DNA of 64,000 bases from Candidatus Zixiibacteriota bacterium (GTDB lineage Bacteria; Zixibacteria; MSB-5A5; GN15; FEB-12): assembly GCA_035380245.1 (NCBI GenBank), contig DAOSXA010000004.1, forward strand, positions 13,421 through 77,420, given 5' to 3'. Below are positions 11,244 to 63,108 of this stretch, piece after piece. The number at the start of each line of letters is the position of its first letter. The stretch's first letter is position 1. Position numbers and translations under genes: made by a program. The notes beneath the pieces were generated by a model, which was not told where the DNA came from, searched no databases, and worked only from the letters and a program-made list of their open reading frames with translations.

Positions 11244-12218
11244 CTAATCGTAGTCGACCTCCGAAGAATCACCCACATTGAGCACCTGTGAAGTCCCTTT
11301 CACGGTGGTATTCATCCCGACCAGGGAACGTTCGATCACGGCATTGTCGATACTGGCTCCGGTCGAGATAATTGAATTCTTGATAATACAGCGGTGCACC
11401 TCGGCGCCGTCGGCAATCGACACGTACGGTCCAATCACCGATTCGGACACTTTCGCCCCCGGAGCGATGTACACCGGCGGAACGATTGTCACTCCTTCAG
11501 GGGGAGAAGTCGGAGGCAGTTTCATCAGAAAATGACGATTAGTCGCCAACACCGCTTCTTTTTTACCGCAGTCGTACCACTGCTTCACTTCAAAAGCCCG
11601 GAAACGAGCACCGTTGTCGATCATCGTTTCGAGGGCATCGGTGAGCTGTATCTCTCCCCGGGTTCGGCGACCGGATACGACCAGGTCGTTAAGAGCCTGT
11701 TTAAGCTCGGAGGAATCATAGAAATAATAAAGACCGATCAAAGCCAGATTGGTCCTGGGTTCGGCTGGTTTCTCCTGCAGGCTTACGACCATGCCGTCCT
11801 TGACTTCGGCCACTCCGAATCGTTGGGGATCATCGACCTGTCGCACTCCCAGGATATTCTCTTTATGTCTGATCAGTTCCTTCAGGTCGCATTCGACAAT
11901 CGTATCCCCAAGAATAACGAGCACCGGGCCGTCGCCGACATGGAGTAATCCCTGCTGTACGGCATAACCAAGTCCGAGAAGGCGATCCTGCCAGACAAAA
12001 GTCGCCTTGAAGTCGTAATTTTCCTCGACGAACTGCCGAATCTGACTCCCCTTATGGCCAATAACGAAAATAACTTCTTCGGGATTTAAGGCCAGAAGCG
12101 GGTCCAGCACATAGGACAAAATAGTCTTCTCCGCAACGCGAAGAAGCGGCTTCGGCTTTGACAATGTGTGCGGCCGCAGGCGTGTCCCGACACCGGCCAC
12201 CGGAATTATAACTTTCAC
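11244..12218 (-). CDS. Sugar-phosphate nucleotidyltransferase with a C-terminal left-handed beta-helix
   Basis: MKVIIPVAGVGTRLRPHTLSKPKPLL is the NTP-transferase signature. The C-terminal hexapeptide-like repeats include IGPYVSIADGAEVHRCIIKNSII. Confidence 0.85.
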   Translation of the reverse strand: MKVIIPVAGVGTRLRPHTLSKPKPLLRVAEKTILSYVLDPLLALNPEEVIFVIGHKGSQIRQFVEENYDFKATFVWQDRLLGLGYAVQQGLLHVGDGPVLVILGDTIVECDLKELIRHKENILGVRQVDDPQRFGVAEVKDGMVVSLQEKPAEPRTNLALIGLYYFYDSSELKQALNDLVVSGRRTRGEIQLTDALETMIDNGARFRAFEVKQWYDCGKKEAVLATNRHFLMKLPPTSPPEGVTIVPPVYIAPGAKVSESVIGPYVSIADGAEVHRCIIKNSIISTGASIDNAVIERSLVGMNTTVKGTSQVLNVGDSSEVDYD

Positions 12219-53918: not shown

Positions 53919-56900
53919 GTGAAAAATATCCCCAAAGGACTACTCTTAATTACAGCATTACTGTTGCTATCGTCAGCGATCCTGGCTCGATCGTATGCCG
54001 AAGCACCGGTCGACAGCCGTGATCTGGACAATACTACGTACATCGACGGCAACAACATACTGATGTTCGTTACCAACCACGGCAGTTTCGGCCGTGACTT
54101 GGATGATGTTTTCGGATATGACGCCGGTACCTTCTACCCCTACGTGGACATCGGCAGCATAGAAGACGGAAGCCTGAGTAACTATGTTCTCTATGCCGCA
54201 GGTATATGGCTTGGCGGTAAAATCGCCGGAGATACCCGTCTTGCTATCGCCGAATACAACGATGAGTACGTCCCGGGGCCGATGAGCGGCGGCACTTATA
54301 TGCCCGATTCACCTGAGTTCCACACCTATAAGCTCTACTCCGACTCTTTGGCTGATAATCCAAACGATGACTACAACAACTGGCCGGTAGCACAGGGAGC
54401 ACCGGTTGACAGTCTTGGCAATCCGGCTATGATCGGCAATCAGCTCACCTGGTCGGTGTTTAACGATGCCAATCCGTCTGAGCATTTGAACAATGCCGGT
54501 GAAACCGCTCCGCTCGGAGTGGAAATCAGGCATACCACATTCACCTTCGAAACGGACAATGCCCTGAACTCGGTGATTTTCCACCGGTGGGTGCTGGTCA
54601 ATAAAGGTGATCAGGATATAAGCGATTTCTATTTTTCGCTCTGGACCGATCCGGACCTTGGCGAATACACCGACGATCTGGTTGGTTGCGACACCCTGCT
54701 TCAACTAGGTTTTTGTTATAACGCCGACAACAATGATGCCAACCATTACGGGAGCACTCCCCCCTGCATTGGTTTCCAGATGTTGCAATCCCCGATGATA
54801 TATACCGGAAACATGGATGATACCGTGCGTATGTGGGGAAGAACCTGGCCGGGTTATATCAACATCGGCATAACGTCGTTCAATAAGTATATCAATGGAA
54901 CTGATCCTAACTCTGCAGAAGAGTCATATAACTACATGCAGGGTTTGCTTGCCGACGGTTCCCCTTACATATATAACGGCCAGGAGTTGAGGTACGTGGC
55001 GAGCGGCGATCCGGTAGCCGGAACCGGCGATCTGGACTTCGATCCGGCTGATCGAAGGATGATGCTTGGCGCGGGACCGATCTCGTTCAGTCCGGGTGAC
55101 AGCACTGAAGTCTATACCGCTATGATAGTAGCACGCGGGTCGGACCGGTTGACCTCAATCAACCTGGTGAAAGCCGCCACGACCGAAGTTCAGCAGGTTT
55201 ACGAAAACGACTTCGAGTCAAGCGAACCGCCTATCGACGATCCGTTCCTGGTTGAATTTGACTATGACGAAAACAGCATGGAGTTGGCCTGGAGTGAAGC
55301 CCCGGTGGGACCGAGCGGATACGATTTTCAGGGCTTCCGACTCAAAATGCAAACCGATTCGGGTTATTCCGAGTTCGCTGAGTTCGACATCGCCGACGGC
55401 CTGACTGTGTTCGTGGATGAAGTGTGGGATCCGACAACTGGAACAACCGTCATCGATACGGTCTTCCTGGGTTCCGACAATGGCCTGACCTATGCCCTGA
55501 GCCTGCCGGACAAACCGTTTTCTCATGAACCGTGGATGCCGGGAGAGATTCATCGCTTCCAGCTTGAACGGCTCTACTGGAATCCGAACGGATCGACGGG
55601 GACAAAGCTGTACGCTTCGGTGTTCAACTATAGTATTACCATCGTTTCGGGTTTGCGGCGGGAAGTTCCCGCCCAATATCCAACCATCCAGGCGGCCGTG
55701 GATGAAGCTGTCTACACCGATACGGTCGTGGTTGCCCCCGGTATTTACTACGAACACGACATTACGGTTGACAAAGCAGTGCCGGTGATCGGCGAAACGG
55801 GCGATCCCGCGGATGTCGTGGTTGATGCTGAAGGACTGGGACGCGGCTTCATTTTGGGTGACGTTTCCACTCTGATGACGCGTCTGCTCGGCTTGACGAT
55901 CATTCACGGACAAACTACGCGCGACGGTCTCGGACCGGTGGGGGGAGGCATTTACGCCGGGATGGCCAATATCCGCAATTGTACCTTTACGGAAAATGTT
56001 GCCGACAGCGGCGCGGCGCTCAGGATTGTCTGGGGTCAGGTCGACAGTTGCCGGTTTTTCGACAATACTGCCTCCGGGGGAGGAGCTGTCTACAATGTAT
56101 CACAGGCCGTCCAGATTACCAACTCCGTATTCGCCGGCAATCAGGCTGATGCAGGCGGCGCGGTCCACGGCTACAGCGTTGATATTCACAACTGTACGTT
56201 CGTCAACAACACCGCGGAGTTGGGTGCGGTGATCTATGCCGCCCATCCCCTCAGCTTCTATATGGACAAGTCGATCGTGGTCGCCAACACCGCCGAGGTA
56301 ATGATTCAGACCACTTCGACCGATCCGGGACAGCGGCTCAGTTGCAACGATTTCTACGGCAACAGCGGAGTTATGTGGCCGGGCGCAACCGAGGACGACA
56401 TCACAACTTCCGGTAACCTCTCGGCCGACCCGCAATTCTGCGATCCCGAAAACCGCAACTTCAGTTTGCGCGGCTATTCGTTCTGTCTGCCGGACGGCAA
56501 TGCGTGTGACACCTTGATTGGAGCCCTTGACGAAGGCTGCGCCGGAGTAAAGGTATTGATGGAACCAGGCGTTCTTCCAATTTTCTACGCCAATGCCGTA
56601 GAACCGATGACGCTGCACGTTTACCTGGGCGATATCTCAGACGGCGCACCGGTTTCCGAGATTAATGCGGGCTCGTTCATCCTGAACGGAACCTTCCTGC
56701 CCGAAGCAACGGAATATGTCTCCGGCATTCCGGACTTCGAGGGTGAAGTGCTGGATCTGCAATTCAACATGGCGAGTTTCATTCATGCGTTCGGTTATTT
56801 CACCGGTGTTATCGACACTACCTATTCGCTGACCGGCAACTGGCTTACCGGCGATGAGATTACCTACAGCGGCCCGGTGGTTTTGCTCGGTCGTGTTCCG

Positions 56901-57107
56901 GGTGATGTAACCGCCGATGGCGTTGTTGACATTTCCGACCTGGTTGGACTAGCCGCGTTCACATTCCAGCAAGGCAGGCGACCGAAGGATCTGATGGCTG
57001 CCGACTTGAACTGCTCGGGAGAAATTGACATCAGTGACGTGGTAATGCTGGTTGAGTTCATGTTCAACGGCGGTACGGCACCAGAACCATGTCCGAACGA
57101 CCAATGA
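53919..57107 (+). CDS. Large secreted protein (1062 aa) with a right-handed beta-helix (Pmp/pectate-lyase-like) repeat region and a C-terminal dockerin-like double repeat
   Basis: GTG start with a GGAGG upstream and a signal peptide. Repeats include GGGIYAG...NCTFTENVADSGAAL...FFDNTASGGGAVYN...VFAGNQADAGGAVHG...NCTFVNNTAELGAVIYA. The tail is GDVTADGVVDISDLVGL...DLNCSGEIDISDVVMLVEFMFNGG. Confidence 0.8.
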   Translation: MKNIPKGLLLITALLLLSSAILARSYAEAPVDSRDLDNTTYIDGNNILMFVTNHGSFGRDLDDVFGYDAGTFYPYVDIGSIEDGSLSNYVLYAAGIWLGGKIAGDTRLAIAEYNDEYVPGPMSGGTYMPDSPEFHTYKLYSDSLADNPNDDYNNWPVAQGAPVDSLGNPAMIGNQLTWSVFNDANPSEHLNNAGETAPLGVEIRHTTFTFETDNALNSVIFHRWVLVNKGDQDISDFYFSLWTDPDLGEYTDDLVGCDTLLQLGFCYNADNNDANHYGSTPPCIGFQMLQSPMIYTGNMDDTVRMWGRTWPGYINIGITSFNKYINGTDPNSAEESYNYMQGLLADGSPYIYNGQELRYVASGDPVAGTGDLDFDPADRRMMLGAGPISFSPGDSTEVYTAMIVARGSDRLTSINLVKAATTEVQQVYENDFESSEPPIDDPFLVEFDYDENSMELAWSEAPVGPSGYDFQGFRLKMQTDSGYSEFAEFDIADGLTVFVDEVWDPTTGTTVIDTVFLGSDNGLTYALSLPDKPFSHEPWMPGEIHRFQLERLYWNPNGSTGTKLYASVFNYSITIVSGLRREVPAQYPTIQAAVDEAVYTDTVVVAPGIYYEHDITVDKAVPVIGETGDPADVVVDAEGLGRGFILGDVSTLMTRLLGLTIIHGQTTRDGLGPVGGGIYAGMANIRNCTFTENVADSGAALRIVWGQVDSCRFFDNTASGGGAVYNVSQAVQITNSVFAGNQADAGGAVHGYSVDIHNCTFVNNTAELGAVIYAAHPLSFYMDKSIVVANTAEVMIQTTSTDPGQRLSCNDFYGNSGVMWPGATEDDITTSGNLSADPQFCDPENRNFSLRGYSFCLPDGNACDTLIGALDEGCAGVKVLMEPGVLPIFYANAVEPMTLHVYLGDISDGAPVSEINAGSFILNGTFLPEATEYVSGIPDFEGEVLDLQFNMASFIHAFGYFTGVIDTTYSLTGNWLTGDEITYSGPVVLLGRVPGDVTADGVVDISDLVGLAAFTFQQGRRPKDLMAADLNCSGEIDISDVVMLVEFMFNGGTAPEPCPNDQ

Positions 57108-57132
57108 TCCGATTGGAGATATTCTTGATTTG

Positions 57133-57164
57133 TAGGGCGCCCAATTTGGCGCCCTATTTCTTTG
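57133..57164 (+). terminator. Rho-independent terminator (GTAG-headed hairpin)
   Basis: tGTAGGGCGCC-caattt-GGCGCCCTA followed by tttcttt. Confidence 0.75.
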
Positions 57165-57465
57165 GGTTAAAACAACTTAACTATAAAAAGCGGAGAAAGA
57201 TGTTGCAATTGATACTAAGCTGGACTATTATTAATGGTTGTGCTGTAATAGGAATGCTTTTGCGGCGGGTGTCGTAGTGCGACATCAATGCGCCTTTTTA
57301 TCTTTTGGCGGCCACTAGCGCCAGGGCGTCTCTTTGTCCCGGTCAGCCGCGAAGCATAAGTGTCTGCACGTTGACAGACAAAGGATTAACGGATGACTCA
57401 ATTCTGTACGTCAATAGCCGGGACCGGTACCGCCGGATTGAGTCACATTATTGGTTGTATCTTAG

Positions 57466-60018
57466 ATGAACTTCAAAGTACCAAATGCTATCGTTTGGAG
57501 CGCGCCGTTGGGCGTTATCTTGGGTGGCCTGGTCGGGTATCTCTGGCCGGACATCAGCGGCTGGGCCGCATTTCTCTACGTTGGGGAGCTGTTCTTAGGG
57601 GGATTGAGACTTCTGGTTATTCCGTTGGTCGTAGCTTCGGTAGTCACGGGGCTGGCGGCATTACGGAACACACAAAAAGCCGGTAAAGCCCTGGCGCTGA
57701 CGTTAGGGTATTTCATCGGCACTACTCTGTTGGCAACGATACTGGGGATTCTGGTCGTTTCGATCATGTCGCCGGGATTTGCCCTGGCCGGTTATCAAGG
57801 TGTCGTTGACTCACAGATCCATTCGATGCAGACCGCCAACTCAGCCAATATGATCGGGGTTGCGCTGCAGTCACTGTTCCCGACCGACTGGGGCACGGCT
57901 GCCCGGGGGCAATATCTCGGGATCATCATCCTGTCCATGATATTCGGAATGGTCCTGGCTACGATGGGTTCGCGCCAGCGTTCCGTGGCGGATACCTTCC
58001 GGGGCATCAACGAAGCCCTGCTGCGTCTTTTCCGCCTGGTGATCTGGGCCACCCCGGTGGGTTTGTTTTTCGTAACTGCGTCAACAATGTCCTCGGGAAC
58101 CGAATCGCTGGCCAATATAGCCGAACTCGGATATTTTCTGATCGCCTTCACGGTCGGCCTGGCTCTGCATATTTTTGTTATCCTGCCGCTCATCCTGCAT
58201 TTCTTTGGCGGCAAGAACGTTTTCGAGTATTACCACAATCTTTTACCGGCGATCAGCGGCGCCCTTTCGAGCGGTTCTTCAGCGGCTACCCTGCCGATCA
58301 CTTATAGTTGTGTTGTCGATCGTAACGCGATCAGCCATCGAGCGGCTTCAATGGCCCTGCCAATGGGCAGTTGTCTGAATTTCGACGGTGCAGCGATGTT
58401 CTCGGTAATGGCGGTGATTTTCGCTGCCCAGGCGGCTGAATTCTCGCTTTCGTTCGGTAACTATTTGTTCATTCTGGTCGCAGCGTTGGGGATATCGTTC
58501 CTAACGGCCGGGATGCCGATAATGGCCATGGTCGGAGCGGTGTTGACAGCTACGGCAATCGGACTCCCCGACCGTGGTCTGGCGGTTTTGGGATTGCTTT
58601 TACCGCTGCAATGGTTGACCGTTCGCGGCAGTGCCTTAATGAGCATTCTGTCCGATTCTATCGGCGCCGCGGTAATTGCCAAACAACTCGGCGAACGTAT
58701 CGATACTCGAAGAAGCCGGGAGGACTATTCACAGTCACGCGGACGCGATGACCGTCGCAGTTATTCACGGGACAACCGCGACAGTCGCGATTCTCGTGAT
58801 CGACGCAGTGCTCGCGACAGCCGTACCGACCGCGATCCTCGGAGTCGACGCGATGATGGTAATCGCGACGATCGCCGGAGCAGCCGCGGACGATCCGGTG
58901 ATTTCGATCGACGGAGCCGGGATCGCCAAAGTGAACGTGAAGAACGCAGTGGGCGACCGCAGAAAATGGATGAAAGCCGCGACCGCACCGACCGCCCGGG
59001 ACGTCGGCCTCAGGAGCGGTCTGGCCAGTCACCGTTTGCAATAAGAGCGGAATCAGCCGCACGTCAACCGGAGCTGGAATCGCCCGCAGCGCCGATGACA
59101 ACCGTCGACACCGAGAAGGAATCCACACCAAAGAACGAAAAACAGGATTCCCCCGCCGCTCCGATCCATTACGGTCGGAAACGGAGCCACCATGGTCGGG
59201 TAGGCAAGCCGGAGCAACAGGAAAATCCTAAAGATGAGGGTAAGTCCAAAGAATCCAGCCCGGAGCCGAGATCAAAATCGGGACGAAGTAATCCCGGTCG
59301 ACGCGCCGAAACAAAGCCGATAGCGGCTGAGAGCCCCAAACCGTCAAAAGAAGACAAGGATGTGGAGCCGGATGATATCGCCAACCGGACGGTTCAACGC
59401 GAGCGAGCCAAGGTGGCGGCTCAGTTAGCGGCAATGAAGCAGGCCGAAGAATTAAGCCGAGCTGCTCTCAAAGCGGCAGAACGCGTGACGGCGAAAATCG
59501 AACAGCGGGAGCAGGAAGCTGCCGAGGAAAAAGCTGAAATCGAGGCTATTTCTTCCAGAGCGGTACAGATCGACTACGTCTCGGATGAGAATCCGGAAAA
59601 ACCAACGACGGAGCTCGTTTCCGAATCAGTAACGGAAACAACCGAGACGGAACGGGAAAAACCGGAATCGAAACTGCCGAAGCAACCGACGGCGGAAGAA
59701 TCCGAGAACGAGATTAAAGCTGAGAAAGCGGAAGAACCCGATCGGTCGGCACAGGAACCGGTAACCGAAGCGAAGATCGATGAAGAACCTCGGTCTGCAT
59801 CCGATGAGGAAGTAGACACTGAGGATGACGACGAACCGGATATCCAGTACGGACGTCCCCGACGCAATCGCGGTAATATCCGAAACGGCGAGGAAACATC
59901 CGACGACAATGACAACGGAGAGACCAACGTGGCGGTGATGGATGAGCCCAAACCGCTCGATGATTTCTCGAACGAGAATATGTCGTTCGGCCGCACCCGG
60001 AAAAAACGGACACGTTAA
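57466..60018 (+). CDS. Dicarboxylate/amino acid:cation symporter (DAACS, GltP-like; about 410 aa) fused to a highly charged low-complexity C-terminal tail of about 440 aa
   Basis: The transporter part has LLVIPLVVASVVTGLAAL, SSGSSAATLPITY and NFDGAAMF. The tail begins near nt 58700 with SRDNRDSRDSRDRRSARDSRTDRDPRSRRDDGNRDDRR.... It is a single uninterrupted ORF. Confidence 0.85.
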   Translation: MNFKVPNAIVWSAPLGVILGGLVGYLWPDISGWAAFLYVGELFLGGLRLLVIPLVVASVVTGLAALRNTQKAGKALALTLGYFIGTTLLATILGILVVSIMSPGFALAGYQGVVDSQIHSMQTANSANMIGVALQSLFPTDWGTAARGQYLGIIILSMIFGMVLATMGSRQRSVADTFRGINEALLRLFRLVIWATPVGLFFVTASTMSSGTESLANIAELGYFLIAFTVGLALHIFVILPLILHFFGGKNVFEYYHNLLPAISGALSSGSSAATLPITYSCVVDRNAISHRAASMALPMGSCLNFDGAAMFSVMAVIFAAQAAEFSLSFGNYLFILVAALGISFLTAGMPIMAMVGAVLTATAIGLPDRGLAVLGLLLPLQWLTVRGSALMSILSDSIGAAVIAKQLGERIDTRRSREDYSQSRGRDDRRSYSRDNRDSRDSRDRRSARDSRTDRDPRSRRDDGNRDDRRSSRGRSGDFDRRSRDRQSEREERSGRPQKMDESRDRTDRPGRRPQERSGQSPFAIRAESAARQPELESPAAPMTTVDTEKESTPKNEKQDSPAAPIHYGRKRSHHGRVGKPEQQENPKDEGKSKESSPEPRSKSGRSNPGRRAETKPIAAESPKPSKEDKDVEPDDIANRTVQRERAKVAAQLAAMKQAEELSRAALKAAERVTAKIEQREQEAAEEKAEIEAISSRAVQIDYVSDENPEKPTTELVSESVTETTETEREKPESKLPKQPTAEESENEIKAEKAEEPDRSAQEPVTEAKIDEEPRSASDEEVDTEDDDEPDIQYGRPRRNRGNIRNGEETSDDNDNGETNVAVMDEPKPLDDFSNENMSFGRTRKKRTR

Positions 60019-60040
60019 GACTGTCCATCGAGTCGATATT

Positions 60041-60079
60041 GACCCGGTTGCGAAAAATACGCAACCGGGTCTTTCTTGC
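60041..60079 (+). terminator. Rho-independent terminator after the DAACS fusion gene
   Basis: gacccggttgcg-aaaaata-cgcaaccgggtc followed by tttctt. Confidence 0.75.
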
Positions 60080-60175
60080 AGGGAACTTATTGGCTGTTAT
60101 CTCGATATTACCTGTAGGAAAAACAATTGACCCGGCCCGTGCGGGAAGGTTAGATTTGTCTCAACGGAGAAGGAT

Positions 60176-61045
60176 ATGAACAGCCTTAAAGTCGCCATAA
60201 TGATGATCGCCCTGATGGCCCTGTTCGTGGCTGTGGGCTATGTCGTAGGCGGCCGGAGCGGTATGGTTATCGCCCTGGTTTTCGCTATGGTGATGAATTT
60301 CTTCAGCTATTGGTATTCCGACAAGGTTGTACTAAAACTCTACCGAGCTCGAGAAATCCAGGAGCAGGAACACCCGCGCCTGTATCGAGTAGTGAAACGA
60401 GTAACCACGACAGCGATGATACCGATGCCGAAAGTTTGTATCGTACCGAGCAAGGCTCCAAATGCCTTTGCCACCGGACGTAACATGAACCATGCCGCGG
60501 TCGCTGTTACCGAGGGTATGCTGGAGATTCTGAATGAAGAAGAGCTTGAGGGTGTGATTGGTCACGAAGTGGCTCATATCCTCAATAAAGATATGCTAAT
60601 AGGCACGATCGCAGCAACTTTCGCCGGCGCTATCGGCATCCTGGCGAGCATCGCCCGCTGGGGAGCGATATTCGGCGGCTACGGCCGGAGCGATGAACGC
60701 AACGGCGGCGCGATCGGTCTTTTAGCCGCAGCTATCGTAGCGCCACTCATGGCGATGGTTATCCAGATGGCTATCTCGCGACAGCGGGAATACAAAGCCG
60801 ACCGCGTCAGCGGTCTTATGACCGGCAAACCGCTCGCGCTCGCCTCGGCTCTGGAAAAACTTCATCGTTCCCCCAACCGACGAGCTTTCGCGGGTAACCG
60901 GGCAACGGCGAATCTTATGATCGTCAATCCACTCTCGGGACGCGGTATTGCTTCCTGGTTCTCGACCCACCCGCCGCTCGAAAAACGCATTGAGAGACTT
61001 CAAGAACTGGCCAAGGAGGCCCCGTACCAGAGCTATGTCAGATAA
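60176..61045 (+). CDS. htpX: Zinc metalloprotease HtpX (M48)
   Basis: HEVAHI motif, four TM, EYKADR. Confidence 0.92.
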   Translation: MNSLKVAIMMIALMALFVAVGYVVGGRSGMVIALVFAMVMNFFSYWYSDKVVLKLYRAREIQEQEHPRLYRVVKRVTTTAMIPMPKVCIVPSKAPNAFATGRNMNHAAVAVTEGMLEILNEEELEGVIGHEVAHILNKDMLIGTIAATFAGAIGILASIARWGAIFGGYGRSDERNGGAIGLLAAAIVAPLMAMVIQMAISRQREYKADRVSGLMTGKPLALASALEKLHRSPNRRAFAGNRATANLMIVNPLSGRGIASWFSTHPPLEKRIERLQELAKEAPYQSYVR

Positions 61046-61099
61046 CTTATCGGACGACCCCTCAGACTTTCCTGAACGAATCAAGGGAGTGAGGCCCTG

Positions 61100-62443
61100 A
61101 TGGACAACGCTCCCTTGATTCAGATCGTAGCGATCCTGTTGTTGATCTGCGCCAACGGCTTCTTTGCCATGTCGGAGTTTTCCATCATTGCCAGTCGGCG
61201 CTCGCGGCTTCGGCAACAGGCGGAAGACGGCCGTCCCGGGGCCGAAGCGGCCGAGAAACTCAACCGCAAACCGGATGAATTCCTGGCCACGATTCAAATA
61301 GGCATTACTCTGGTCGGAACGCTGGCCGGTGTAACGGGCGGCGCTACAATCGTGGAATGGCTCCGGAAAATACTCACCGTCAGTTCGATCCCGGCCGTAG
61401 CAGGTGCGGCCAAATCGCTTTCGGTGGTGATCGTAACAATCCTGATAACGGTCTCGACCGTGACACTCGGGGAACTGGTGCCGAAATATATCGCACTTTC
61501 CAATCCCGAGCGTTATGCCCGCTGGATCGCCCGACCGATCACGATTTTTACCCAGATCAGCCTGATTTTTGCCCGACTGCTCAGCGCCGTATCCAATTTC
61601 ATTCTCAAGATTCTCGGGGTGAAACACAATCCGGCACGCTCTGCGGTATCCGAAGACGAAATCAACCTGATGATCTTCGAAGGACGCGAAAAGGGTGTGT
61701 TCGATGAGACCGAGGAACGACTGATAAAATCGGTGTTCGATTTCGCCGACTCACCGGTCAGCCGCGCCATGACCCCCCGTACCGATGTGGTCGGGATCGA
61801 CATCGCCCTCGAACCGGCCCAGATGTTGCGGAAAGTGGTCGAAAACGGCTATAGCCGCTATCCGGTTTATCAGGACACGATCGACAACGTTGTCGGTATT
61901 TTGTATGCCAAAGACCTGCTGGAGCAGGAGCTCAACACATCGGCTATCGTAATGGCCGATCTGATCCGCAAGCCAACCTTCGTGCCGGAATCGATGCCTC
62001 TTTCGGCGCTGCTGTCCAAATTCCGAAGACATAAAGGGCGAGTCGCGATCGTCCTGGATGAATTCGGAGGCACGGCCGGAATAGTCTGCCTGCAGGATAT
62101 TATCGAGGAACTGGTGGGTGAAATACAGGACGAGGACGACAAAGACCCGCCCGAGTTGGTCAAACATTCCGACAACGTTGCCTATGCCGACGGCTCGGTC
62201 TGGCCGGGAGCAATCAATGAGTTAATGCACTGCCGTCTGCCCGAGGCGGACCATGATACTTTAGCGGGACTGATTATCGAGACTATGGGACGTCTGCCGG
62301 AGAAAGGGGACTCGATAGTTATCGCCGACATGAACATCACCGTGCTGGTATTGGAGCATCGCCGGGTGGCGCGACTCAAACTGGAACGAATCAACAAAAG
62401 CAACGACAACGGCGCCAACGGGAAAGGCAACGGCCGTTCATGA
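61100..62443 (+). CDS. CNNM/TlyC/CorB-family membrane protein (DUF21, CBS pair, CorC_HlyC domains)
   Basis: NGFFAMSEFSIIASRRSRL, MTPRTDVVGI, DEFGGTAGIVCLQDIIEELVGEI. Confidence 0.88.
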   Translation: MDNAPLIQIVAILLLICANGFFAMSEFSIIASRRSRLRQQAEDGRPGAEAAEKLNRKPDEFLATIQIGITLVGTLAGVTGGATIVEWLRKILTVSSIPAVAGAAKSLSVVIVTILITVSTVTLGELVPKYIALSNPERYARWIARPITIFTQISLIFARLLSAVSNFILKILGVKHNPARSAVSEDEINLMIFEGREKGVFDETEERLIKSVFDFADSPVSRAMTPRTDVVGIDIALEPAQMLRKVVENGYSRYPVYQDTIDNVVGILYAKDLLEQELNTSAIVMADLIRKPTFVPESMPLSALLSKFRRHKGRVAIVLDEFGGTAGIVCLQDIIEELVGEIQDEDDKDPPELVKHSDNVAYADGSVWPGAINELMHCRLPEADHDTLAGLIIETMGRLPEKGDSIVIADMNITVLVLEHRRVARLKLERINKSNDNGANGKGNGRS

Positions 62444-63108
62444 GAAGTTTTTTCAACGCCCCGATGCGCTGGTTACGCAGTCTTTACGACTGGGTGCTGA
62501 GCTGGGGTAAGAGTCGCTACGGCCTTCCGGCGCTGTTTCTTTTATCGTTAGCGGAGGCATCCTTCTTCCCCGTTCCGCCCGATGCCCTGCTGATCGCTCT
62601 CTGCATGGGGTCTCATACCCGCTGGAAACGATTCGCGCTGGTTTGTTCTATCGGCTCGATTATCGGCGGCGTGATCGGGTATTTGATTGGATTACTGGCG
62701 TTCGATTTGATCGGTGAATGGATGCTTAATATCACCGCCTCCATCTCCGGCACCGATCCGCAGCAGTTGCTCGACACCGCTCGTTACTGGTTTAACGAAA
62801 AACAGGTGATGGGCATGCACGTAGGCGCCTGGGCGGTTGGGATTGCGGGCTTTACACCGATCCCCTACAAAGTATTTACGATCGCAGCCGGTTTCTTCGA
62901 AATGGCTTTTATCCCGTTCCTGGTCGCCTCGGCCATTAGTCGCTCGCTCAGATTCTTCGTGGTGGGGGGGATTATCGGGTTGCTTTACAAACGCTACGGC
63001 GACCGGATTCAGGATTTTATCGACAAGTATTTCAACCTCTTGGCGCTGGCTTTCGTGGTTTTACTGGTGCTGGGATTTGTCGCAATAGGTTCGATGGGTG
63101 GGGAGTAA
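62440..63108 (+). CDS. YqaA/DedA-like (VTT domain) membrane protein
   Basis: EASFFPVPPDALLIAL..., FTPIPYKVFTIAAG. Its start overlaps the upstream stop by 4 nt. Confidence 0.75.
   Translation: MRSFFNAPMRWLRSLYDWVLSWGKSRYGLPALFLLSLAEASFFPVPPDALLIALCMGSHTRWKRFALVCSIGSIIGGVIGYLIGLLAFDLIGEWMLNITASISGTDPQQLLDTARYWFNEKQVMGMHVGAWAVGIAGFTPIPYKVFTIAAGFFEMAFIPFLVASAISRSLRFFVVGGIIGLLYKRYGDRIQDFIDKYFNLLALAFVVLLVLGFVAIGSMGGE

Follow-up and report, generated by a model that had tools for sequence, protein, structure and literature searches.

A long, disordered and charge-segregated C-terminal tail on an SLC1/DAACS carrier of Candidatus Zixiibacteriota

The SLC1/DAACS family (PF00375, TC 2.A.23) contains carriers such as EAAT1-3, ASCT2 and GltPh, and its structure and mechanism are well understood. 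The ordinary prokaryotic members in our data set ended ~10–40 residues past transmembrane helix 8 (TM8). Here we describe a member of this family that continued beyond TM8 into a tail of 440 amino acids (aa). It was encoded by a complete open reading frame (ORF) of 850 aa, located at 57466–60018 on the plus strand of a 64,000-nucleotide (nt) stretch of DNA from a Candidatus Zixiibacteriota bacterium (assembly GCA_035380245.1, contig DAOSXA010000004.1, positions 13,421 to 77,420), which we refer to as the window. The window protein was like other SLC1/DAACS carriers in its core sequence, its fold and the SSAATLP motif of hairpin 1 (HP1), and differed from them in that its ligand motifs were largely replaced and its tail was long and disordered. 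Its membership of the family was assigned by profile hidden Markov model, fold and the HP1 motif. Bacteria seldom have long disordered regions that are conserved, and on secondary carriers such regions are almost unknown; the well-characterised host makes this protein tractable for the study of disordered tails on prokaryotic transporters.

The closest functional parallels are found in osmoregulated transporters. Charged tails regulate BetP and OpuA electrostatically (10.1101/2022.06.02.493408; PMC10906006). In BetP, ProP and OpuA the tail regulates activity through salt-sensitive electrostatic contacts with anionic lipid or neighbouring protomers, and the window protein shares with them an Arg-rich C-terminal extension on a transporter, which in BetP is trimeric. 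However, these proteins belong to unrelated transporter families. In BetP the sensor is helical and ~45–55 aa long, compared to a disordered tether of 300–490 aa in the family described here, and the BetP, ProP and OpuA tails are without the acidic block, the repeated [FYW]GR+ motifs and the position-locked terminal peptide. Sensors of this type are short, charged and structured (helical, coiled-coil or CBS) and respond to internal K+ or ionic strength; the tail here was predicted to contain two helices (aa 414–430 and 636–699) within 440 mostly disordered residues, and no docking was predicted.

A second group of parallels concerns clustering. The ABC transporter Rv1747 clusters through a disordered region, and both this module and RNase E's C-terminal domain resemble the tail in being membrane-attached, long, disordered and charge-patterned, with short conserved segments and the capability of multivalent clustering. 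Neither showed sequence homology to the tail, and the host here was a secondary carrier. Unlike Rv1747, the tail contained no evident FHA domains or phospho-dependent logic; unlike RNase E, it contained no identified RNA-binding or degradosome partner motifs. An RNase E-type C-terminal scaffold, with its membrane-targeting helix, AR2/RBD and partner microdomains, was rejected, as the tail profile reached SDF (PF00375)-linked copies only among 1.84 billion proteins and there were no PDB or Pfam matches. In composition, aa 411–520 of the window protein, with their interleaved RD and RS dipeptides, were similar to the arginine-enriched mixed-charge domains (RD/RE/RS repeats) that eukaryotic nuclear-speckle proteins contain. 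Such repeats condense in a length-dependent manner, and those of the Arg/Asp mixed-charge type are self-cohesive (10.1101/771592). The tail differed from the speckle domains in being prokaryotic and membrane-tethered, in being without an RNA recognition motif (RRM) and in its variable Arg preference, and the likeness is compositional. The same applies to the resemblance to RS domains and to RNase E and Rho extensions proposed by the sequence-only reading, a first interpretation of the DNA made without database searches: it did not extend beyond composition, with neither an RNA-binding domain nor homology.

Continuity, conservation and anatomy of the tail

The ORF listing placed core and tail in one frame with no stop codon between them, the tail comprising aa 411–850 (nt 58696–60015). 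The start codon was supported by the N-terminus MNFKVP, which was kept in the orthologue P0002. A contig of depth 33 from one activated-sludge run was identical to 57300–60300 of the window, with no substitutions and no indels, and low-depth contigs from three other samples also covered this region without a substitution or an indel. The matching contigs came from activated-sludge and digester metagenomes. The identity of four independent samples over this region excludes a frameshift or misassembly as far as assemblies can show. The read-through from transporter to tail described by the sequence-only reading was thus borne out.

The coding-strand AT skew was strongly positive (0.3–0.5) across the tail (58650–60000), which reflects the high purine content of the codons for Arg, Asp, Glu and Lys. 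Antisense and off-frame ORFs were present over the tail, for example at 58658–59131 and 59574–59996 on the minus strand; these long ORFs are most likely by-products of the purine-rich composition.

The first protein search already returned homologues of 696–900 aa that also had long tails. In total, ~20 orthologues carried tails of 295–486 aa with one common order of elements, which was retained even though their cores were only 26–47% identical; the tail was longest in the window protein and P0002. A tail-only profile made from seven tails was searched against 1.84 billion representative proteins. This yielded only 12 matches at E ≤ 1e-3, all of which were SDF carriers with the tail or contig-edge fragments of such carriers. 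No stand-alone tail, and no tail attached to another host domain, was found among these proteins, and an origin by fusion with a pre-existing gene was rejected on this basis. The view of the sequence-only reading that such a tail is very unusual on a secondary transporter therefore agreed with the data. Its refuting condition, a tail unconserved even in the closest homologues, did not hold, since the tail and its [YF]GRxR-type motifs were conserved in relatives. Other Zixibacteria paralogues and the homologues of other phyla were ~400–530 aa in length and had no long tail.

When GTDB species genomes were scanned with the alignment of one branch of the family, designated subfamily B, ten more long-tailed genes were found, nine of them complete and one (L008) cut at a contig end. 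All were in metagenome-assembled genomes labelled Zixibacteria or 'uncultured Ignavibacteriales', and the record of P0008 carried the latter label. Five loci (L008, L011, L013, L014 and L018) were labelled 'uncultured Ignavibacteriales' despite a Zixibacteria-type gene and synteny, and these labels may be taxonomic mislabels of automatically binned genomes. A corresponding scan of GTDB species representatives with the tail pair of the window and P0002 returned 340 pattern sites and no true relatives, indicating that relatives of the subfamily-A tail are not detectable in any GTDB species representative. Among the papers searched, none combined Zixibacteria with intrinsic disorder and none described such a tail; a search for DAACS with C-terminal extension and disorder gave none that mentions DAACS. 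The tail is a real, selected, lineage-specific disordered module that occurs only on an SLC1/DAACS carrier. It is a natural example of evolvable low-complexity spacers combined with conserved charge blocks and a near-invariant, position-fixed terminal peptide.

The tail sequence had no matches in Pfam or NCBIfam (E ≤ 1) or among PDB sequences (E ≤ 1). In an AlphaFold2 model of the window protein, built on a 23-sequence alignment, the predicted local distance difference test score (pLDDT) of the tail was <50 save for a helix at aa 636–699 and a short helix or turn at SPFAIR (aa 526–530); a further helix was placed at aa 414–430, right after TM8. The C-termini of SLC1 proteins are cytoplasmic in the GltPh and EAAT structures, which places the tail in the cytoplasm.

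All elements of the tail are given here on the plus strand. It began with an Arg-rich mixed-charge block (aa 411–520; 58696–59025) with a pLDDT <50, in which Arg made up 35%, Asp 19% and Ser 16% of the residues; its charged fraction was 0.60, its net charge per residue +0.11 and its R:K ratio 43:7. An SR-protein RS domain was considered for this block and rejected, because its 19 RS/SR dipeptides were equalled by 19 RD/DR dipeptides, there was no RRM and the host was a membrane carrier. An island conserved between the window protein and P0002 followed (SPFAIR...ELESPAAP, aa 522–545; 59029–59100), of which the SPF was also present in P0005, P0007 and P0028. The mid-tail aromatic-basic motif YGRKR (aa 569–573; 59170–59184) had a homologous [YF]GR[KR] at a similar position in most members. 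Downstream of it, a long alpha-helix of 64 residues (aa 636–699; 59371–59562) was predicted with a pLDDT of 81–93; it was confined to the subfamily of the window protein, P0002 and P0005. The helix was followed by an acidic block recognised from the charge profile (aa 700–794; 59563–59847; net charge ~-25) and by a second aromatic-basic motif, YGRPRR (aa 795–800; 59848–59865), whose counterparts were FGVRNRARR in P0002, FGGRSRRRR in P0005 and YGRSRFRR in P0007 and P0028. The last element was a C-terminal island identified from family conservation, DDFSNENMSFGRTRKKRTR (aa 831–850; 59956–60015), which contained the terminal copy of the motif, FGRTRKKRTR, starting at aa 841 (59986–60015). Over the whole tail the net charge per residue was -0.02, and the C-terminal half had a net charge of -32.

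All three tracts originally noted in the tail (RS/RD-type, A/E/K-rich and acidic) were thus present. So were the [YF]GRxR motifs, whose three copies began at aa 569, 795 and 841, within a few bases of where they had been placed. The helical part of the proposed coiled-coil-like stretch stood, and the coiled coil itself is only possible: 13 of the 19 a/d heptad positions of the helix were hydrophobic, counting Ala, which is a weak periodicity. The helix could form a three-stranded coiled coil beneath the trimer.

The pattern [FYW]GR.[KR] occurred three times in the tail compared to an expectation of 0.012 from 200,000 composition-preserving shuffles (P ~5e-6). Alignment of the C-termini gave the terminal peptide as [W/F/Y]-G-R-x-K-[RK]-[KR]-[KR]-x-x-[RKQ], preceded by an acidic run. 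The G and R were invariant in all 17 unique members, and in all 17 the aromatic residue was located 10–11 residues from the C-terminus despite the variation in tail length (295–486 aa). Among 2,525 ORFs in 628 kb of DNA, covering the window and ~560 kb from related loci, the terminal motif occurred on no other genuine ORF; one extra match, in L019, ran antisense within a 703-aa gene and was an artefact. Two known domains were rejected. The AT-hook (PF02178) gave no Pfam match at E ≤ 1, and the terminal motif read FGRTRKKR, with Pro at position +3 in 7/17 members; GRP, the AT-hook core, did occur in the internal YGRPRR. For the WGR domain of Pfam, which is folded and ~80 aa long, there was no match in the tail.

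The distribution of charge was also conserved. Among the 17 unique members the first half of the tail was net positive (+7 to +28) and mostly Arg-rich, and the second half was net negative (-12 to -54). Compared to shuffled tails, the charge segregation, expressed as sequence charge decoration, had a z of -6.2 in the window protein and of -9 to -15 in most members.

The alignment of the window protein with its syntenic orthologue P0002 (locus L001) showed conserved islands separated by variable spacers. These islands were SPFxIR...SPAAP, a 35-aa helical segment, DYVxSDE and DFSxENxSFGRxxKKRTR. The proportion of nonsynonymous differences (pN) was lower than that of synonymous differences (pS) in every segment of the codon alignment; since synonymous sites were saturated (pS ~0.7), these ratios are indicative only, and it is the comparison of pN with pS, not dN/dS, that is meaningful. 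The helix at aa 636–699 was 68% identical to P0002 with a pN of 0.23 and the last 20 aa were 78% identical with a pN of 0.19, compared to a pN of 0.35 in the core. No DNA tandem repeats were found in the window tail, so its low complexity is not a recent microsatellite-type expansion. The basic block of P0002 contained five tandem copies of DQRRDGRP (aa ~473–512; L001 ~11330–11480), and these repeats suggest that the Arg-rich block grows by repeat expansion.

Subfamily B (P0003, P0004, P0008, P0009, P0024–P0026 and the L007–L018 tails) was without the long helix. Its members shared the motifs E[IV]PKFPxxILxxL and F[SA]RLDxM[VI]MG, which were predicted to be helical, at low confidence, in an AlphaFold model built on a 6-sequence alignment (mean pLDDT 36).

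The SLC1 core and its altered ligand sites

The core (aa 14–406; 57505–58683, plus strand) matched PF00375 with an E-value of 2.3e-74 and a score of 251 bits, the cut-off being 27.9, and aligned to EAAT1 with an E-value of 5e-59 (HMMER). Its SLC1 fold, of eight TM helices and two re-entrant hairpins, was evident from the AlphaFold2 model (pLDDT 70–95), for which the top Foldseek matches were EAAT3, ASCT2, EAAT1 and GltPh with target-normalised TM-scores that reached 0.84. HP1 carried its serine-rich motif, of the SSSAATLP type, as SSGSSAATLP (aa 268–277). The cores of this Zixibacteria clade were closer to animal EAAT/ASCT proteins (E ~1e-59 to 1e-43) than to GltPh/GltTk (~1e-30 to 1e-24), and a mollusc EAAT-like protein was among the nearest database homologues.

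The core had been described as normal-looking by the sequence-only reading, and this was not the case at its ligand sites. The TM7 motif, canonically NMDGT and a source of Na+ and substrate ligands, read NFDGA (aa 305–309; 58378–58392), and the HP2 motif GIPQAGL (GxPxAG) read GMPIMAM. The TM8 motif QWLTVRGSALMSILSD (aa 382–397; 58609–58656), for which the canonical form is DWxLDRxRTxxNVxGD, aligned with DWLLDRFRTMVNVLGD of EAAT1 in the HMMER alignment and the family table. Structural work on SLC1 proteins has established that in TM8 the Asp binds the amino group of the substrate and the Arg its side-chain carboxylate, and that the motif also provides ligands for Na+ (Na1). In place of D-R-x-R-T-x-x-N-x-x-x-D the window protein had V-R-G-S-A-L-M-S-I-L-S-D, with D replaced by V386, R by S389, T by A390 and N by S393, and the last D alone kept. 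The sites of P0002 had diverged further, to SFSAL in TM7, GYGVIAI in HP2 and EWLISRGAAIVH in TM8.

Every tail-bearing member except the window protein and P0002 kept the TM8 DRxR[TA]..N, and most of these other members kept an NMDGT-like TM7 motif (mostly N[ML][ND]GT) and the final TM8 Asp; the ligand loss is therefore derived in the lineage of the window protein and P0002. With the neighbouring HtpX used as a clock, the ratio of core to HtpX identity for these two proteins was 0.47/0.74 = 0.63, compared to 0.71–1.16 for the other pairs with an HtpX identity of at least 0.69. This lowest ratio is consistent with a changed or relaxed constraint on the core. Because the TM7, HP2 and TM8 ligands are largely replaced, the window protein is probably not a Na+/H+-coupled acidic amino-acid transporter, and judging from these motifs the automatic label "dicarboxylate/amino acid:cation symporter" is probably wrong on both substrate and coupling for the window protein and P0002. 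The lineage may show a transition from a carrier to a non-canonical carrier or anchor in which the tail was retained.

Candidate roles of the tail

We tentatively favour, ahead of the alternatives considered below, a tail that would serve as a tethered module for docking and regulation, in which short motifs are carried on a salt-sensitive, charge-segregated linker. The positional lock of the terminal peptide and its invariant G-R argue for recognition by a defined site and not by bulk electrostatics, which is why a tethered-ligand model is favoured. In this model the terminal peptide and its one or two internal copies would be recognised as ligands by a defined site that is acidic or binds aromatic residues. 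This site could belong to the carrier trimer (on its cytoplasmic face), to a neighbouring trimer or to a partner protein; HtpX and CNNM would be the obvious candidate partners because their genes are always adjacent. The Arg-rich and acidic blocks would attract each other, so that the reach and availability of the motifs, as well as tail–tail association, would depend on ionic strength (K+, Mg2+). The state of the core expected from homology is a trimer with a cytoplasmic C-terminus, and with three tails per trimer the assembly would be multivalent, and clustering or gating of the carrier could result. As the canonical amino-acid/Na+ site was lost in the lineage in which the tail is longest and has gained a helix, the role of the tail in this lineage is probably independent of glutamate/aspartate transport. 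The original suggestion of a scaffold, a localisation signal or a regulatory module was too broad to test: the data favour a docking and regulatory module built on short motifs, without choosing among partners.

Several points weigh against a docking module. AlphaFold2 docked no tail motif on the monomeric core and gave the terminal motif a pLDDT <50. The tail-bearing gene has its own terminator and htpX a separate promoter-like site, so the synteny with htpX and CNNM may reflect history and not function. As the members are all orthologues from a single phylum, conservation alone cannot separate the candidate functions. To our knowledge, a tether of 300–490 aa is also far beyond any known autoregulatory transporter tail.

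Among the alternatives, a pure electrostatic sensor of osmotic or ionic strength of the BetP/OpuA type is rather unlikely. The motifs and the Arg block would bind anionic lipids (phosphatidylglycerol, cardiolipin) at low ionic strength and be freed at high K+/Mg2+, switching the carrier with no protein partner. The charge-segregated layout of the tail would suit such a sensor, and an aromatic residue followed by four to five Lys/Arg is a typical interfacial binder of anionic lipids. There are also precedents in the Arg-rich C-terminal domain of BetP, which binds cardiolipin, and in OpuA, which is gated by electrostatic protein–membrane contacts. The ancestral core resembles a glutamate transporter, glutamate being the main counter-ion of K+ in osmoadaptation, and ion-homeostasis genes are nearby, with CNNM at every locus and a TrkA-domain channel near the tail-bearing gene in L004. 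However, generic lipid binding leaves the invariant G-R and the exact C-terminal spacing (17/17) unexplained, the tail is 6–10 times longer than the BetP and ProP sensor tails, and it was kept in a lineage with a dismantled substrate/Na+ site. It is less probable still that the tail is a polyanion binder, in which RNA, DNA or polyphosphate is bound by the Arg block and by Tat-like [YF]GR(K/R)n motifs that would either tether the polyanion to the membrane or form RNA-containing condensates as with the RNase E C-terminal domain. Such binding would fit the basic block, with its high Arg content (35%), its R:K of 43:7 and its many RS/RD dipeptides, and the motifs resemble arginine-rich RNA-binding peptides, although only by resemblance. 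The DNA also originates from activated-sludge and digester metagenomes, environments in which polyphosphate metabolism is common. This alternative is weakened by the net negative charge of the whole tail and its C-terminal half. Moreover, not every member prefers Arg, since in several members of subfamily B the block contains Lys and Arg in about equal amounts. Pfam, PDB and tail-profile searches revealed neither an RNA-binding domain nor homology to RNase E, Rho or SR proteins.

A proteolytic handle, in which the tail and terminal motif would be the start or recognition site for regulated degradation or clipping of the carrier by HtpX or FtsH, is very unlikely. Both HtpX and FtsH target cytoplasmic parts of membrane proteins, and FtsH requires an unstructured tail from which to begin; the M48/HtpX gene adjoins in 13/13 loci, and the terminal motif is position-locked like C-terminal degrons. 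A degron, however, needs neither 300–490 residues nor a conserved order of charge blocks nor internal motif copies, and the tail-bearing gene and htpX seem to be separate transcription units. The reading that can most nearly be dismissed is that the tail is non-functional, a product of read-through, fusion artefact or misassembly and hence translated low-complexity junk. The low-complexity composition and the lack of domain matches would agree with this, but the sequence was identical in independent samples with no indels, the frame was open over 295–486 codons in ~20 divergent orthologues, the motif order was conserved, the terminal G-R was invariant and pN was lower than pS. Junk or artefact is essentially refuted.

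A more specific possibility concerns the lineage of the window protein, in which the SLC1 carrier might have ceased to be a coupled transporter and become mainly a trimeric membrane anchor for a mixed-charge condensate or hub, with a specific client recruited by the terminal peptide; we regard this as improbable. Clustering at the inner membrane, tunable by salt, would be driven by the Arg/Asp/Ser and acidic blocks, and the [WFY]GRxK(K/R)3 peptide would recruit the client, possibly HtpX or the CNNM Mg2+ transporter. If true, this would be a membrane-organising system that has not been described before in bacteria.

Genomic neighbourhood

The tail-bearing gene was flanked by two hairpins. An intrinsic-terminator-like hairpin (60041–60071, plus strand) with a 12-bp stem containing 9 GC pairs and a T-rich tail followed the stop codon, and a terminator-like hairpin was located upstream of the ORF (57132–57157). 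Promoter-like sites were found upstream of the tail-bearing gene and of htpX. With these flanking hairpins and promoter-like sites the tail-bearing gene looks monocistronic. Downstream, 60176–61045 (plus strand) encoded an M48 (HtpX-type) membrane protease (Pfam Peptidase_M48) and 61100–62443 (plus strand) encoded a CorC-type divalent-cation transporter with the Pfam domains CNNM, CBS and CorC_HlyC. The order of tail-bearing SDF, directly followed by M48/HtpX and CNNM-CBS-CorC, was found in the window and in all 13 tail-bearing loci (L001–L005, L007, L009–L014 and L018), and a VTT/DedA gene was often next (60176–63108 in the window). None of the tail-less SDF loci that were fetched had HtpX, and L023 alone among them had CNNM, as a distant match ~3 kb downstream. 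The genes upstream of the tail-bearing gene varied among loci. In the window this upstream gene (53919–57107, plus strand) encoded a secreted-looking protein of 1,062 aa with beta-helix, DUF5123 and weak dockerin-type matches, and it was conserved as a gene of 1,066 aa ahead of the orthologue in L001.

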